The notes below the pieces were generated by a model. The model was not told the origin of the DNA, ran no database searches, and worked only from the letters and a program-made list of their open reading frames with translations. Below, piece by piece: positions 20,285 to 44,776 of a stretch of 56,847 nucleotides of DNA (position 1 is its first letter; every line of letters begins with the position of its first letter). Where the stretch lies: assembly GCA_016214385.1 (NCBI GenBank), contig JACROP010000108.1, forward strand, positions 1-56,847. Reading direction: 5' to 3'. The position numbers and the translations under genes are program-made. This DNA comes from Nitrospirota bacterium. Its GTDB lineage: Bacteria; Nitrospirota; Thermodesulfovibrionia; UBA6902; JACROP01.

Positions 20285-20758
20285 TTACAGGGCAATCGGT
20301 CTATCTCTTTTTGCAGGTACGGCGCAGAGAAATCCAAATGGCTCGTTAAAAGGGTTCAGAAGCTGATGAGGCGTATTGGGCGATATATAGACAATGTCGA
20401 GAAAACTTAGCTTGTGATGTTTTTTGTTTAAAAATACTTTTCCATTGCCCCTGATTACTACTACCACATGCTCATGCCTGTGTTTTTCAAAGCTGCTCTG
20501 GCCTCCTGGAGCAATCTCAAAGTATCTCAGGTGAAATTTTGCAGATTCGCCGTAATTGCCGATTATAACTCGCCTTACAATAGCTGCCCAATTCCCAGCC
20601 TCTGGCTTATATTTTTCTGTCTTTATGCCCTGCCATGTGAAATTGCCCCTGTGTTTGCAGAGTTTGCTTTTATTTTTTATGTGTGCCTTCTTTCCTCTGC
20701 TGGTTGTAGACCTCATCTTCCAATCACATGATATTGGGGCTTTTTCCTTTTTAGGCAT
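20285..20758 (-). CDS. Cupin domain protein with a basic N-terminal extension
   Basis: 'GGQSSFEKHRHEHVVVVIRGNG...ISPNTPHQL' cupin_2 motifs. Confidence 0.7.
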   Translation of the reverse strand: MPKKEKAPISCDWKMRSTTSRGKKAHIKNKSKLCKHRGNFTWQGIKTEKYKPEAGNWAAIVRRVIIGNYGESAKFHLRYFEIAPGGQSSFEKHRHEHVVVVIRGNGKVFLNKKHHKLSFLDIVYISPNTPHQLLNPFNEPFGFLCAVPAKRDRPIAL

Positions 20759-20775
20759 TTAAAGACCTCCGTTAA

Positions 20776-21822
20776 TTAATCGAAAGCAATAATACTTTTA
20801 AGTGCATCACTCGCCCGAGAAGTGAGCTTGAATGCCTCTGCTGTCTTTTCAACAGGGAACCTGTGGGTGATTAACTTTTCAGCCCCCACAACACCTTCTG
20901 ATATGAACCTGAGCGATTCCCTTGTATCTGTAGGGCCGCATGAGTAACTTGTGACTATATTTATATCCCTGAAATACAGGTGGTTAGGGTCTATTGTAAG
21001 ATTTTCCCCTGGCTTTACAGGTGTAAACAAAATCACTGTCCCACCCTTTGAAACAGCCTCTATCCCCTGTTTCACAGCCTCCACACTGTTTGGGCCAACA
21101 ATCACAACATCTGCCATAAAACCATCGGTCAAGTCCTTCGCTCTCTCTATGAGATTTTCTTTAGAGACATCTATGACATAATCAGCGCCAAACTCCAGTG
21201 CCTTATTCAGCCTGAATGGTACCATATCAGCGCCGATTATTTTTTCTATGCCGAATTCCCTGGCAAGTAGTATATGCATCTGTCCCATAACGCCGAGCCC
21301 GATGACAAGTATGGTGTCACCCTTTTTTATGGACGCCCTCTTTAAAGATTTAACAACACATGCAGTTGGCTCAATCAATGTCCCATCTTCATAGTCTATA
21401 TCTTCTGGAAGTATCAGCGTATCGTTTCTTAGATTTATCTCAGGTATGAGTATGTATTCAGAGATGCCGCCTGGGATTATCCTCGTGTCCCGCCATGTAT
21501 CACACTGGACATAATCGCCACGCTTGCAATATCTACAGGATTTTAAGTTTAGGCACGGCGCATGATGGTGAACAAATACCATGTCACCAACAGAAAGTGA
21601 CGAGTGACGAGTGACAAGTGACGAGCCTAATTCTACAATCTCACCCACTGGCTCGTGGCCTAACACGAGGGGCGCCTTCTTTTCTATATACCATGGCATC
21701 ACATCCCCTGAGCAGATGCCACAGGCCTTTGTCTTTATAAGTGCATCACGAGGGCCGATCTGCGGAATGGGGATATCTTCTATTCGTATATCGGTGAAGC
21801 TATAAAGCTTTGCTACTTTCAT
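20776..21822 (-). CDS. Zn-dependent medium-chain alcohol/polyol dehydrogenase
   Basis: 'CGICSGD', 'GHEPVGEI' and 'GLGVMG' Rossmann motifs. It contains a heptamer repeat at 21597-21624. Confidence 0.88.
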
Positions 21823-21968
21823 TTGCTCTCTCCATAAAGCACATCAAGCGGGCTTTGCGGCGCATTTTTCATATCGCGCAGGACATGGGTGTAAATCATG
21901 GTCGTCTCTACATTCTTATGCCCGAGTAGACTTTGCCATGATTTATAACCTTTCGCTTTTAGTCCATA
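21819..21968 (-). pseudogene. C-terminal remnant of an integron-type tyrosine recombinase (intI-like)
   Basis: The minus-strand frame reads '...[40 protein letters not shown]'. There is no start codon, and an in-frame stop lies just upstream at 21969-21971. The [13 protein letters not shown]-x8-SPLD tail matches my recollection of IntI C-termini. Its TGA overlaps the dehydrogenase ATG (ATGA). Confidence 0.7.
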
Positions 21969-22288
21969 TTACCACAAAAGACGAAATTGTTGGAATGCCT
22001 CATAATTGATTTTATGCAACTTTTCCTCTTTAAAAAATCTTCAAGCTGTGCTACATTTTAACCAGTTTTCGGAAAATACGGTAGTTCGTATAGTAATTGT
22101 TAGACAACAAATAATAATAAATAATGAAAAATAAAAAATATGGATGCTTGGTCAAAAAGTGAAATTGTTTCATATATTTTAGTGATTATCGGTGGATTGG
22201 CTCTTGCTGTTGGCCCGAGATTAAAAAAATATGAAAGACCTCAGCTCCGCCCTCCTCTGGAAAGACATATTTTTATGTTCCAAAAGCG

Positions 22289-22741
22289 ATGTCAGACAAG
22301 ATTTCTATTCAAAAGGATAGAAGCTTACCAGCCACAATTTTCAGTCACTATTTTCAAAAACGACCAACAACTGAAGAAGAATATGACAATCTTCTTCGTC
22401 TGCTTCAGTCAAAAGGGATATTCCTGATTGATATATGCGATGATCCTATCAAAGTCAGAGGTAATTCAAATGGCATCCAGCGTCTCATTAAAGAGATTCC
22501 GAAATTACGAACTAAGATGAAGAAAAGAAAAATAAATATTGAAGATAAAGACATCGTGTTTTTACTTGCCAGGAAAAACTATCTAAAAAATATTAAACAA
22601 GAATTCCCAATTTCAAAATATATAAGATGGATAGACTTCCGGATGTCACCAGAACCATTAATAAGAAGAAGAAATAAGGCAGGACATAACGAATCAATTC
22701 ACCGAATCGGCGGGGAACTGCCCCGCCTCTCGGTGATTTAG
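22289..22741 (+). CDS. Hypothetical protein (integron cassette ORF)
   Basis: 150-aa ORF with no recognisable motif. Its 3' end runs into the attC-like palindrome, as is common for cassette ORFs. Confidence 0.4.
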   Translation: MSDKISIQKDRSLPATIFSHYFQKRPTTEEEYDNLLRLLQSKGIFLIDICDDPIKVRGNSNGIQRLIKEIPKLRTKMKKRKINIEDKDIVFLLARKNYLKNIKQEFPISKYIRWIDFRMSPEPLIRRRNKAGHNESIHRIGGELPRLSVI

Positions 22742-22750
22742 GTCGTTATA
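22685..22750 (+). repeat. attC-like recombination site 1
   Basis: 'ATAACGAatcaatTCACCGA' ... central stem 'ggcggggaactgccccgcc' ... 'TCGGTGAtttaggTCGTTAT'. An R''-like xATAAC lies on the left and an R'-like GTTAT on the right. Confidence 0.55.
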
Positions 22751-22781
22751 GCTAAAAAAATACATTCCACCACAGTGCATC

Positions 22782-22810
22782 TTGACAAATGCTGTAATAC
22801 ATTGTAAACA
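22782..22810 (+). promoter_or_regulatory. Candidate cassette-internal promoter for the toxin-antitoxin pair
   Basis: TTGACA (22782-22787), a 17-nt spacer, then TAAACA (22805-22810). The ATG at 22817 follows 6 nt later. Confidence 0.3.
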
Positions 22811-22816
22811 TATATC

Positions 22817-23086
22817 ATGGTTGTTTATGAAGAGAACGTTAAAAAGTCAGTTGCTAAAGGTTCTTTACCTAAAGATGTTTTTGAAAGATTTAATAACGTT
22901 TTTATTGCTTTAGATACGACTCATGATCTCAGCCTTTTTGATATTAAAAAATTAAAGGCATCTGAAAAGAGGACATACTATCGCGTTAGAAAAGGGAAAT
23001 ATAGAGCCATATTCTATATTGAGAACAATAACTATTACGTTATATCAATTGCCAAGAGAGAGGAGGTATATGATAAATGGGAGTAA
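22817..23086 (+). CDS. RelE/ParE-family toxin
   Basis: 89 aa. 'YYRVRKGKYRAIFYIENNNYYVISIAKREEVY' is the typical RelE/ParE C-terminal pattern. Confidence 0.7.
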   Translation: MVVYEENVKKSVAKGSLPKDVFERFNNVFIALDTTHDLSLFDIKKLKASEKRTYYRVRKGKYRAIFYIENNNYYVISIAKREEVYDKWE

Positions 23087-23292
23087 TATCCATTAGATTG
23101 AATAAAGATGAAGAAAAGATTCTAAAGAAACTGGCCGAGTATTTTCATGAGGATAAATCGGCGTTAGTTAAAAAATCATTGCTTGAGTTGTATGAAAATG
23201 TCGTGGATTTGGACGAGATAAAAAAATTTGAGGCAAAGGAGCGTAAAGGTAAAGTATCTTTTTTTACAGCAGAAGATATTCTAAAAAAATAG
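23077..23292 (+). CDS. Ribbon-helix-helix (CopG/DUF6290-like) antitoxin
   Basis: 71 aa. 'ISIRLNKDEEKILKKLAEYFHEDKSALVKKSLLE' looks like an RHH fold. It overlaps the toxin gene by 10 nt. Confidence 0.6.
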   Translation: MGVISIRLNKDEEKILKKLAEYFHEDKSALVKKSLLELYENVVDLDEIKKFEAKERKGKVSFFTAEDILKK

Positions 23293-23304
23293 AAGTAATG
23301 CTGC

Positions 23305-23360
23305 TATAACAAATCACTCCACAGGATGCGGAAACCGCACCTGTGAGTTCAGGCGTTACT
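23305..23360 (+). repeat. attC-like recombination site 2
   Basis: 'ATAACAAatcactCCACAGG' ... central stem 'tgcggaaaccgca' ... 'CCTGTGAgttcaggCGTTAC'. The left arm matches site 1 at 15 of 20 positions. Confidence 0.55.
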
Positions 23361-23369
23361 GGTATGTAT

Positions 23370-24434
23370 TCAGGGGATGATTGCATACTTTATACCCTCG
23401 CCTCGAATAAGGCGTTCAAGGGCTGTCTTGAGATTATCGAGCGGGTAGCTGTCTGAGATAAGTCCCCTGACTTTGATGCTTCCATCACACAGGAGCTTAT
23501 AAGCTTTTTTAACATCAGATGGCGTGTAGTGAAAGATGCCCTTCAGGGTCATTTCATCGTAGTGGAGCCTTTTCGTATCATACACTACAGTGGTTTCTTC
23601 TTTGCATCCACCGAAGAGCACAACTGTACCGCCTTTTCGTGCAAGCCATATAGATGTCTCCCATACCTCTGGAAGTCCTGTGCATTCAAAGACAATGTCT
23701 GCCCCCAGCCCCTTTGTAAAATCTTTTATTGCTTTATCAGCATTCCCTTCATCTGCATCTATTACGAGGTCAGCCCCTTGCTCTGCCGCCTTTTTCAACC
23801 GCTCTTTTCTCTTACCGAGAACAATTACCCTTAGCCCCATTGTCTTTAAAAGCATAATGTGCAGAAGTCCTATTGGACCTGCGCCGATGATTAGTGCCGT
23901 GTCTTCTCCTGACAGAGAAACAGAATTAATTCCATGCACAACGCATGAGAGTGGCTCAAGGAATGCGGCCTCTTCAAAGCTGAGGCTATCTGGCTTTTGA
24001 AATACATTCTGTCTCACGATGTGTGGCGGAAGCAATATGTATTCTGCAAAGGCCCCGAGAATTTTTGTATCCATAATTTTCTCACAGAGGTTGTGTAGGC
24101 CTTTCCTGCAGAATGGGCATTCTCCACATGGTGCGCTGTGAACTGCCATTACCTCCATGCCTTTTTTGAAGTCATTCACACGAAGGCCAACCTCTGCAAT
24201 TACACCTGAAAACTCATGCCCGAAAACCCCTGGCATTGGAATAAGGGGATGTCCCCTTTTAAATGCCTTCAGGTCAGTGCCGCAGGTAAGGGCAGCCTTT
24301 ATTTTTATCAGAATCTCTCCCTCAGAGGGTCGTGGGGTTTCGATTTCTCTCAGCTCTAAGACGCCAGGACTTATTAAAAGATTTGCCCTCATTTGTTTGA
24401 AAGGTAACCTAAAATATGCATGTGGGTCAAGCAC
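23370..24434 (-). CDS. Zn-dependent medium-chain dehydrogenase (threonine/sorbitol dehydrogenase-like)
   Basis: 'CGTD', 'GHEFSGVIAEVG', 'CGECPFC' structural Zn site and 'GAGPIG'. GTG start at 24434; an alternative ATG is at 24392. Confidence 0.85.
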   Translation of the reverse strand: MLDPHAYFRLPFKQMRANLLISPGVLELREIETPRPSEGEILIKIKAALTCGTDLKAFKRGHPLIPMPGVFGHEFSGVIAEVGLRVNDFKKGMEVMAVHSAPCGECPFCRKGLHNLCEKIMDTKILGAFAEYILLPPHIVRQNVFQKPDSLSFEEAAFLEPLSCVVHGINSVSLSGEDTALIIGAGPIGLLHIMLLKTMGLRVIVLGKRKERLKKAAEQGADLVIDADEGNADKAIKDFTKGLGADIVFECTGLPEVWETSIWLARKGGTVVLFGGCKEETTVVYDTKRLHYDEMTLKGIFHYTPSDVKKAYKLLCDGSIKVRGLISDSYPLDNLKTALERLIRGEGIKYAIIP

Positions 24435-24535
24435 TTTAATGCCCCTGCCTTAAAACTCTAAGGGAAGAAATTTCTTAGGAGGTAGTTTGTTCAAAGGAGC
24501 AGTTTCCCAAAAGATTTGAAGGTTGTCATTGCTTT

Positions 24536-24943
24536 GTGGTAGATTTTCATATGAAGCTTGCTGATGATGGTTACTGCTTTGTGTGCGGGCCTAAGAATCC
24601 GATAGGTCTCAGGCTTGATTTTTCCTTTGATGGAAAGACCATAAAGACTGAGTTTACCCCTCAGAAGGTTCATCAGGGGTATCTAAATATTGTCCATGGC
24701 GGGATTATAGCAACTCTGCTTGATGAGGCAATGGTCAAGCTTGCCCTTGCCCTTAATATCCCTGCGGTTACAGCTATGATGGAAATCCGCCTTAAAAAGG
24801 CCCTTAACGTTGGAGAGAAATTAATAGTCGAGGCAAATATAATCAGGGATACAAAAAAGATTTTAGAGGCAGAGGCAAAGGCTACCACAGAAAACGGAAC
24901 TATTATTGCCGAAGCCATGGGCAAGCTTATTAAGGTTAATTAA
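24536..24943 (+). CDS. PaaI-family hotdog thioesterase
   Basis: '[12 protein letters not shown]' and '[13 protein letters not shown]'. The more likely start is the ATG at 24551. Confidence 0.8.
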
Positions 24944-25335
24944 TATTTCCCCTCAAAATAGTCCTCAAGTATTTTTCTGTGGTCAAAGGCTATGATTTTA
25001 GGAAGAGAGTCTTTCTTGAAAATCCCAATCTCTCTGGCATCATCGCCTGCCTCTGGCCTGCCTGAGGCAGTGGCTATATATACTGTGCTTACAGTATGAT
25101 GCCTCGGGTCTCTATCTGGTTCTGAATATGTATGGAATTGTCTTATCAGTTTTATATCGAGGCCTGTCTCTTCTTTTGCCTCTCTTACTGCTGCTGCCTC
25201 GAGGGATTCTCCATAATCAACAAATCCTCCAGGCAGGGCCCAGCCTTCAGGCGGATTTTTTCTTTTAATGAGGATTATCCCGTCTGCTATTTCTATAATT
25301 ATATCGACGGTGAGAAATGGATTTTTGTGGATCAC
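24940..25335 (-). CDS. NUDIX hydrolase
   Basis: Nudix box '[23 protein letters not shown]'. Confidence 0.9.
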
Positions 25336-44702: not shown

Positions 44703-44729
44703 GATCCTTCGTTGCTTTGCTCCTCAGGA

Positions 44730-44776
44730 TAACTAAAACCAAATGTTAAACGATATATTTGGTTTTAGTTATTTTA
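44730..44776. terminator. Bidirectional hairpin terminator between cheA and the MCP gene
   Basis: A perfect 15-bp stem, 'taactaaaaccaaat' (44730-44744) with 'atttggttttagtta' (44757-44771), and a 12-nt loop. A T-run follows on the plus strand. Confidence 0.6.

Follow-up and report, generated by a model that had tools for sequence, protein, structure and literature searches.

Probable relic of a chromosomal integron, with an internally deleted integrase gene and two attC-terminated cassettes, in a Nitrospirota genome

The stretch of DNA considered here, termed the window, is the whole of contig JACROP010000108.1 (56,847 nt, forward strand) from assembly GCA_016214385.1 of a Nitrospirota bacterium. 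The source is a metagenome-assembled genome (MAG) of approximately 2 Mb in 182 contigs that belongs to the Thermodesulfovibrionales. Two medium-chain dehydrogenase genes, both recognized by profile matches, lie on the minus strand at 20776-21822 (mdr1) and 23370-24434 (mdr2) and are 1547 bp apart. Between them are the 3' end of an integron integrase gene (intI) on the minus strand, a region resembling an integron attachment site (attI) with the intI leader, and two gene cassettes on the plus strand, each closed by a predicted attC recombination site. The open reading frames (ORFs) to the right of the intI stub are oriented opposite to the stub and to both dehydrogenase genes, and the second attC ends 8 nt from the mdr2 stop codon. 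An earlier sequence-only reading of this DNA had proposed a decayed integron with two divergent, attC-terminated cassettes between two medium-chain dehydrogenase genes, and the flanking genes, the stub, the attC sites and the divergent layout are all borne out. The 1.55 kb between the dehydrogenase genes is very probably the relic of a sedentary chromosomal integron with attI, a gutted intI and two attC-terminated cassettes.

The intI remnant was noticed as a minus-strand frame at 21819-21968 that has a stop codon upstream and no start codon. Its 49-aa translation had been taken for the C-terminus of an integron integrase. The integrase tail is real, but it accounts for only 38 of the 49 residues. 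Nucleotide alignment limits the homology to 21819-21935 (minus strand), starting at CAAAGTCTACTCGGGCAT, and the other 11 residues are the 5' untranslated region (UTR) and start region of intI translated in another frame. The stub proper consists of the last 38 codons (QSLLGH onward) and a TGA stop. Its best NCBIfam model is the integron integrase model TIGR02249 (36.3 bits), which outscores XerC (25.9 bits) by approximately 10 bits and XerD (22.6 bits) by more, and the match spans the SPLD tail up to the final profile position. A 38-residue stub is too short to reach the TIGR02249 cut-off of 265 bits. In Pfam, it matches the generic Phage_integrase family (E 2.9e-4).

A phmmer search with the stub against 1.84 billion representative proteins returned 438 matches, and the best are 87-91% identical over the stub. 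Six of the seven longest near-full-length matches that were checked pass the TIGR02249 cut-off (282-427 bits). The seventh, P0117, scores 262.5 bits and is missing the first ~135 profile positions. None of these seven has a Xer model as its best match. This comparison with IntI and Xer models had been proposed as a check in the sequence-only reading, and it assigns the stub, on its sequence, to the C-terminal end of an integron integrase. When one genome per species was scanned, relatives of the stub were located at 279 loci, of which the best 80 were kept. These 80 are mostly in MAGs labeled Thermodesulfovibrionia, Thermodesulfovibrionales or Nitrospirae, in agreement with the names on the homologues of the first cassette gene (see below).

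All that is left of intI in the window is codons 1-3 and the final 38 codons, out of frame with each other, and no further intI pieces occur in the 56.8 kb. The additional domain region that is specific to IntI, present in relatives (for example, RKYPNAAKEWxWQYVFPSxxLSVDPRSG), has been deleted. The deletion junction was placed at 21929-21939 (minus strand) by aligning the reverse complement of the window with the 5' regions of three related loci (L087, L097 and L075) and with the 3' regions of intact genes. The start codon of intI is retained at 21939-21937, and GCA AAG TC comes directly after it. On the intI strand, the sequence at the junction is ...AAATC ATG GCA AAG TCT ACT CGG GCA TAA, and translation from the retained ATG yields MAKSTRA*. 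The match to the 5' end of the L087 intI gene runs up to ATGGCAAA. From GCAAAGTCTACTCGGGCAT onward, the match is to the remainder of the gene from codon ~391.

An exact 5-nt microhomology, GCAAA (21936-21932), is common to the 5' end of intI and the codon-391 region of intact relatives. In L087 coordinates, ~1181 bp (~394 codons) have been lost between two GCAAA pentamers, joining codon 3 to codon ~391. The alignment indicates that intI lost this ~1.18 kb internally through a microhomology-mediated deletion, and not, as had been supposed, ~270 codons from its 5' end. Because the deletion shifts the reading frame, the integrase cannot be made from this locus.

One other recombinase was considered as a source of the missing portion. 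A Xer-like tyrosine recombinase encoded at C13:15211-16623 is cut off after ...RHSFATHLLENGTDLRY, leaving no catalytic-Tyr segment. It ends ...THLLENGTDLRY, where the stub begins, which might suggest two halves of one gene. This reading was rejected because the C13 recombinase has no IntI-specific region and because the attI, leader and ATG of the stub's own integron type are contiguous upstream of the stub.

The 165 bp between the stub and a GTTAGAC core at 22099-22105 (plus strand) correspond to a conserved region that comprises attI, the intI promoter region, the 5' UTR and the start codon. This integron platform occupies 21936-22105 on the minus strand. Positions 21936-22103 are 84.5% identical over 168 nt to the L087 region up to and including the intI start codon, and identities to L075 and L097 are 78% and 76%. 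All four loci lose their homology at one and the same base (xTAAC on the intI strand), past which their sequences are unrelated. The cassette-strand cores at this boundary are GTTAGAC, GTTAGGT, GTTAAGC and GTTAGAC, all of which fit GTTRRRY. L087 also has an attC match on the cassette strand 800 bp beyond its core. The shared homology boundary, the GTTRRRY cores and the unrelated sequence beyond them mark 22099-22105 as the junction between attI and the cassettes, with a predicted crossover at G/TT (22099/22100). Judged by homology and position, the region is an attI that adjoins intI, carries a GTTRRRY core and stands at the start of the array. The core itself had been recognized in the sequence-only reading, which assumed that attI was probably deleted. 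The conserved platform ends exactly at GTTAGAC, and attI appears to be retained.

Within the intI leader, a stretch of ~34 nt at 21954-21987 (GGTAATATGGACTAAAAGCGAAAGG and its flanks) shows 87-94% identity in the otherwise diverged loci L078, L099 and L091. It is more conserved than the coding sequence and may be a regulatory element. A scan for consensus promoters found 9 sites, compared to 6.6 +/- 2.7 in shuffled sequence; this is not above expectation, and no promoter was called. An ATAAC at 21945-21949 was considered as an attC R'' box or a secondary recombination site and was rejected, since it lies within the conserved leader.

Two imperfect palindromes of shared architecture follow the two ORF blocks on the plus strand, at 22684-22751 (P1) and 23304-23361 (P2). 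Their starts are 620 bp apart, and their left arms are identical at 15 of 20 positions, as first noted from the sequence. P1 has the R'' box ACATAAC, the R' box GTTATAG, an L box of TCACCGA/TCGGTGA and a GC stem as its variable terminal structure; its arms are 80% complementary. P2 has the R'' box CTATAAC and the R' box GTTACTG, and its L'' sequence, TCACTCCACRGGA, also occurs in an attC at C87:5257-5315. The AAC/GTT triplets, unpaired spacer and variable terminal stem of the attC architecture are present in both palindromes. Both also have a C before GTT and an A-rich spacer on the R''-L'' arm, which are described features of attC sites (PMC2727003). Folded as single-stranded DNA, P1 reaches -19.8 and -20.7 kcal/mol (z = -5.1 and -6.5; 0/200 shuffles as good) and P2 reaches -12 kcal/mol (z = -2.5; 2/200 shuffles as good).

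The extrahelical bases that are conserved among attC sites are defined as unpaired bases of the R''-L'' arm, a G and a T on the bottom strand (Bouvier et al. 2009, PMC2727003). An attC has two or three of them, and they determine which strand is chosen. P2 carries two unpaired bases on its R''-L'' arm, a C near 23319 and an A at 23326, which correspond to a bulged G and T on the bottom strand that are separated by 5-6 pairs. In P1, this arm is longer by only 1 nt, at the point where the L box meets the terminal stem. Folding of the bottom strands, another check proposed earlier, accordingly finds the expected bases in P2 but none inside the L box of P1.

A covariance model, R1, was built by aligning the two arms of 14 attC sites taken from arrays beside intact intI genes in five genomes (G001, G025, G062, G007 and G003) and from one other contig of the same genome as the window. 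No site from the window is in this training set, and one misaligned site (G001_a) was excluded. In the training alignment, 85% of cells pair, compared to 72% in shuffles (0/500 as high), and sliding the partners by one to three columns reduces pairing to 26-42%. Compensatory changes are found at six of the seven L-box pairs. When both strands of the window were searched with filters off, R1 ranked P1 first (25.5 bits, E 7.8e-4) and P2 second (22.3 bits, E 4.7e-3), each matched end to end on the cassette strand. The next-best match is the reverse strand of P1 (12.9 bits), and P2 is matched on the plus strand only. In control searches, R1 found no match in a 16-kb non-integron locus and four in the cassette array of another MAG. 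The whole 2-Mb genome yields six matches at E<=1. P1 and the attC that closes the G001 array share 70.7% identity over 75 nt. By these measures of sequence and predicted structure, P1 and P2 are very probably attC sites, as proposed.

Other searches for such elements were less discriminating. Rfam has no attC family, and an Rfam scan of 20500-25000 at E<=10 gave sub-threshold noise only. A strict regular expression applied to the genome found P1, P2 and one further site, with 8 matches overall compared to 2-12 in shuffled sequence, and was dropped as a test. A heuristic scanner based on folding found P1 and P2 but also returned unrelated hairpins and missed known sites, and it was used solely to collect candidates. 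It also found a perfect 16-bp hairpin at 44727-44774 (GGATAACTAAAACCAAATG...CATTTGGTTTTAGTTATTT) with TAAC/GTTA flanks, which has no match to the attC model. A minus-strand R1 match at 22056-22105 (11.3 bits, E 2.6) was rejected as a third attC because it is the attI core.

Four more attC-like sites (27-38 bits) are present elsewhere in the genome, at C1:20770-20826(-), C138:1600-1656(+), C56:596-653(+) and C87:5257-5315(+). The first three are directly downstream of small ORFs of toxin-antitoxin-like or DUF type, and the C87 site follows a 164-aa ORF. These scattered sites may be single-cassette elements or fragments of arrays from a broken assembly.

Cassette 1 (22100-22745, plus strand, 646 bp) contains the decayed gene of a conserved hypothetical protein of ~165 aa. 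The 52 homologues identified are 160-175 aa long and come from Nitrospirota, Thermodesulfovibrionales and Chloroflexota, and a homologue sits in an attC-punctuated array of another Thermodesulfovibrionales MAG (L071). The copy in the window has lost its start codon and carries in-frame TGA codons at 22160-22162 and 22232-22234. Its longest open frame, 22289-22741, begins at an internal Met codon and runs into P1. The read-through translation aligns over the full length of the family, and the invariant N-terminal LLVGEAPP reads I*KTSAPP. LLVGEAPP, YFYVP, SLPATIF, GIFLIDICD and WIDFRMSP make up the many invariant residues of this family (window 22163-22741; P0002-P0052), which has no match in Pfam, NCBIfam or PADLOC.

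Cassette 2 (22746-23355, plus strand, 610 bp) carries a predicted toxin-antitoxin pair in which the toxin gene comes first. The RelE/ParE-like toxin gene (22817-23086, plus strand) has sub-threshold matches to ParE_toxin (E 0.031) and to the aRelE structure PDB 1wmi (E 0.01). It overlaps by 10 nt with a DUF6290/RelB-type antitoxin gene (23077-23292, plus strand), whose product scores 51.9 bits with Pfam DUF6290 (cut-off 27) and 36.9 bits with the RelB model NF046040, under its cut-off of 50. A TTGACA hexamer lies upstream of the toxin gene at 22781-22786. The pair appears intact; its antitoxin passes a family threshold, and the evidence for the toxin family is weak.

On the other side of the platform, the TGA stop of intI overlaps the ATG of mdr1 (ATGA), and the start of mdr1 is probably translationally coupled to the intI stop. 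The mdr1 gene also contains four in-frame tandem heptamers of the GTGACGA type at 21597-21624, in a loop that differs in length among orthologues.

Comparison with related genomes provides a view of what preceded the present arrangement. In eight of them, mdr2 and mdr1 are neighbors separated by 0-245 bp. In two others, L081 and G001, an mdr1 orthologue with 75-79% identity follows an open intI gene. L081 is a Thermodesulfovibrionales MAG whose isolate name begins 'Hainich'. Its intI product is 84% identical to the stub, the intI TGA overlaps the ATG of the mdr1 orthologue, and a cupin gene comes next, in the same order as in the window. G001 is the closest relative among the genomes compared (mdr1 79% identical) and encodes a 412-aa IntI (431 bits) directly upstream of mdr1 on the same strand. 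Same-strand genes interspersed with attC sites form an array of ~8 kb in G001, and the mdr2 orthologue lies beyond the last attC, at the far end of this array. The presence of an open intI at the same mdr1 junction in these sister lineages implies that the element in the window is the remnant of an integron that is still complete there.

The orthologous integron of G001 (C26 1-8434 plus the end of C4) is pieced together from contigs C4 (L021 end) and C26 (L024), which overlap through an IS256-type transposase gene. Its first cassette is interrupted by an IS256-type transposase gene. Between its attC sites are genes for an ArsR-type regulator, a 661-aa P-type metal ATPase, an IS200-like Y1 transposase and a HicAB pair.

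Integrase genes that score above the cut-off are found in 35 of 64 genomes of the order Thermodesulfovibrionales. The genome studied here has a second intI locus, at C177:16184-17994 (L001/L004), which encodes an intact IntI (373.6 bits) with a long N-terminal extension. Directly after this gene is a 55-codon C-terminal stub of a different intI lineage that resembles the G001 IntI. The combination of an intact intI and a stub of foreign lineage also occurs in L127 and L101.

Three other accounts of the locus deserve consideration. It is very unlikely that the intI deletion was created by faulty assembly or binning, or is limited to a minority of the population, in an organism that carries a complete integron here. 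Such errors would be conceivable in a MAG of 182 contigs, and the integron regions of relatives are typically broken at contig ends. However, the 56.8-kb contig carries the junction well in its interior, between syntenic flanks, and the bridging microhomology of just 5 nt is far under the k-mer of any assembler. The adjoining cassette gene has decayed independently, and at least six other loci, in five further MAGs that come from different studies, show similar internal deletions.

We give very little credence to the possibility that no integron was ever present at this site and that an integrase acting in trans placed the cassettes into a secondary, non-att site. Insertions of this kind, which would create cassette clusters of secondary-site origin, are documented (PMC4889954; bioRxiv 10.1101/2022.09.11.507474). 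An intact IntI is indeed encoded elsewhere in the genome, which also has the four isolated attC-like sites described above, and three of these immediately follow small ORFs of toxin-antitoxin-like or DUF type. Against this account, the cassettes adjoin a conserved region of attI and intI leader together with the two ends of an intI gene, and an open intI occupies the identical mdr1 junction in two related genomes. It is scarcely credible that the locus is unrelated to integrons and consists of a Xer- or phage-type recombinase fragment with terminators or repetitive extragenic palindromic (REP)-like repeats after unrelated small genes. In Pfam, the stub matches nothing more specific than the generic Phage_integrase family, neither palindrome has an Rfam family, and a simple scan for terminators picks out part of P2 (minus strand). 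These facts are outweighed by the IntI model, which scores at least 10 bits above every Xer model, and by the near relatives of the stub, which are IntI proteins. In addition, the palindromes match the attC model directionally and display AAC/GTT boxes, unpaired spacers and, in P2, extrahelical bases, and neither P1 nor P2 has a T-run after its stem on the coding strand.

Several observations weigh against the interpretation of the locus as an integron relic. The G001 IntI at the same mdr1 junction is just 54% identical to the lineage of the stub. A blastn comparison of the insert with the G001 integron detects no similarity in the attI region, and the sole match is between P1 and the last attC. 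This divergence of IntI and the unrelated attI region mean that the history of the locus is not one of simple vertical descent. The attI assignment derives from conservation and from the endpoint of homology. Among the attC features, P1 has no bulged base inside its L box, and the R' boxes GTTATAG and GTTACTG depart from GTTRRRY past the GTT. At the scale of the whole genome, the R1 E-values are modest (0.027 for P1 and 0.16 for P2) and also rough, as R1 is a home-made model from sites whose central loops were trimmed. Across the order, R1 matches are tied only weakly to intI, being found in 20 of 35 intI-positive and 11 of 29 intI-negative genomes. Finally, mobilization in trans, stabilization by the toxin-antitoxin cassette and reuse of the intI promoter, which are considered next, are steps that we infer.

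If the locus is an integron relic, loss of integrase activity in cis would leave its array frozen and unable to rearrange itself. The attI site and P2 look competent for recombination, and the intact IntI of the other lineage encoded on C177 might act on them in trans. Deletion of the extrahelical bases lowers attC x attC excision more than 100-fold and attI x attC integration only ~6-fold (PMC2727003). P1, which has no first extrahelical base, should be a poor partner for attC x attC excision. Toxin-antitoxin cassettes of chromosomal integrons contain promoters and penalize excessive cassette loss (Richard et al. 2024, PMC13108822). The pair in cassette 2 probably penalizes loss of the array in the same manner, which would help to explain why both cassettes persist. 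Expression of mdr1 is probably still driven by, and coupled to, what remains of intI, namely its promoter and 3' end. Because the leader is kept and the intI stop overlaps the mdr1 start, the remnant may still serve the expression of this host gene.

The element is an ordinary relic of an already known kind. A cluster of attC sites lacking an integron integrase (CALIN) is defined by at least two attC sites within 4 kb (IntegronFinder; Cury et al. 2016, PMC4889954). The window has two co-oriented attC sites less than 4 kb apart and no functional integrase nearby. Loss of the integrase from a complete integron has been proposed as one origin of CALINs, and intI pseudogenes were found near 15 of 279 CALINs (PMC4889954). 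The locus resembles those cases in having at least two attC sites within 4 kb, no functional intI and a recognizable remnant beside them. It differs from CALINs of presumed origin in that it keeps attI, the leader and both ends of intI, its deletion junction is legible to the base, and sister lineages retain an open intI. Its intI remnant covers only ~12% of the C-terminal profile and would fail the 50%-coverage criterion for pseudogenes that was applied in that study.

The platform of L087 (Nitrospirae MAG FK3.bin35, JAJYXI010000016.1) is 84.5% identical in nucleotides over attI, leader and ATG, its IntI is 88.6% identical in amino acids over the stub, and its GTTRRRY core is at the same position. 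Unlike the window, L087 has an open intI of 433 codons, and its genomic context is another one that lacks mdr1 downstream. In Xanthomonas, the ilvD-linked integrons (bioRxiv 10.1101/2025.06.18.660453) also occupy a fixed site beside a housekeeping gene, and their intI has been inactivated repeatedly, so that it is eroded in some lineages, where arrays become static, and intact in others. The window differs from them in its Nitrospirota host (Thermodesulfovibrionales), its dehydrogenase-pair anchor, the overlap of the intI stop with the start of the anchor gene, and the occurrence of two 54%-identical intI lineages at one locus. Like the toxin-antitoxin cassettes of Vibrio-type arrays (PMC13108822), the predicted pair in cassette 2 comes with an attC of its own. 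Those arrays, however, have hundreds of cassettes rather than two, and the pair described here is toxin-first, with weak sequence evidence for its toxin family. For the whole phylum, only two CALINs were recorded when complete genomes were surveyed (PMC9024848), and no paper on integrons in Thermodesulfovibrionia was found in the literature searched.

The related loci also reveal a pattern in how intI genes are truncated. Among the best 80 of the 279 stub loci, the intI frame is full-length in 49 and short in 14, and a contig end cuts the other 17, so that short frames make up 14 of 63 evaluable close relatives. Independent internal deletions in the window and in at least six of these loci (L090, L093, L105, L126, L136 and L150) have 3' endpoints that all fall within codons ~384-391. 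Their 5' endpoints vary (codons 4, 30, 41, 43 and 106). Because these loci were found with the stub as query, ascertainment bias is possible. It is rather doubtful that the last ~38 intI codons are retained non-randomly in Nitrospirota. One explanation for the clustering may be a hot spot for deletion or recombination just upstream of the QxLLGH codons. Alternatively, selection may preserve the 3' end of intI because a host gene that lies downstream and is co-transcribed has its ribosome binding site and coupling signal there. The overlap of intI with the dehydrogenase gene at ATGA, seen both in the window and in L081, fits the explanation by selection. If selection is responsible, part of an integron platform would have been domesticated as the leader of a housekeeping gene.

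This locus does not change what is known about how integrons work. It is more appropriately annotated as a pseudogenized intI with attI and two cassettes than as a set of hypothetical ORFs. Integron integrases are common in the Thermodesulfovibrionales, an order of a little-studied phylum, and one of their chromosomal integrons appears here at a stage where its death can be followed to the base. A single deletion within intI would have left attI, the promoter region and the cassettes in place, after which one cassette gene decayed and the toxin-antitoxin cassette remained intact. The case supports the proposal that many CALINs are former integrons.

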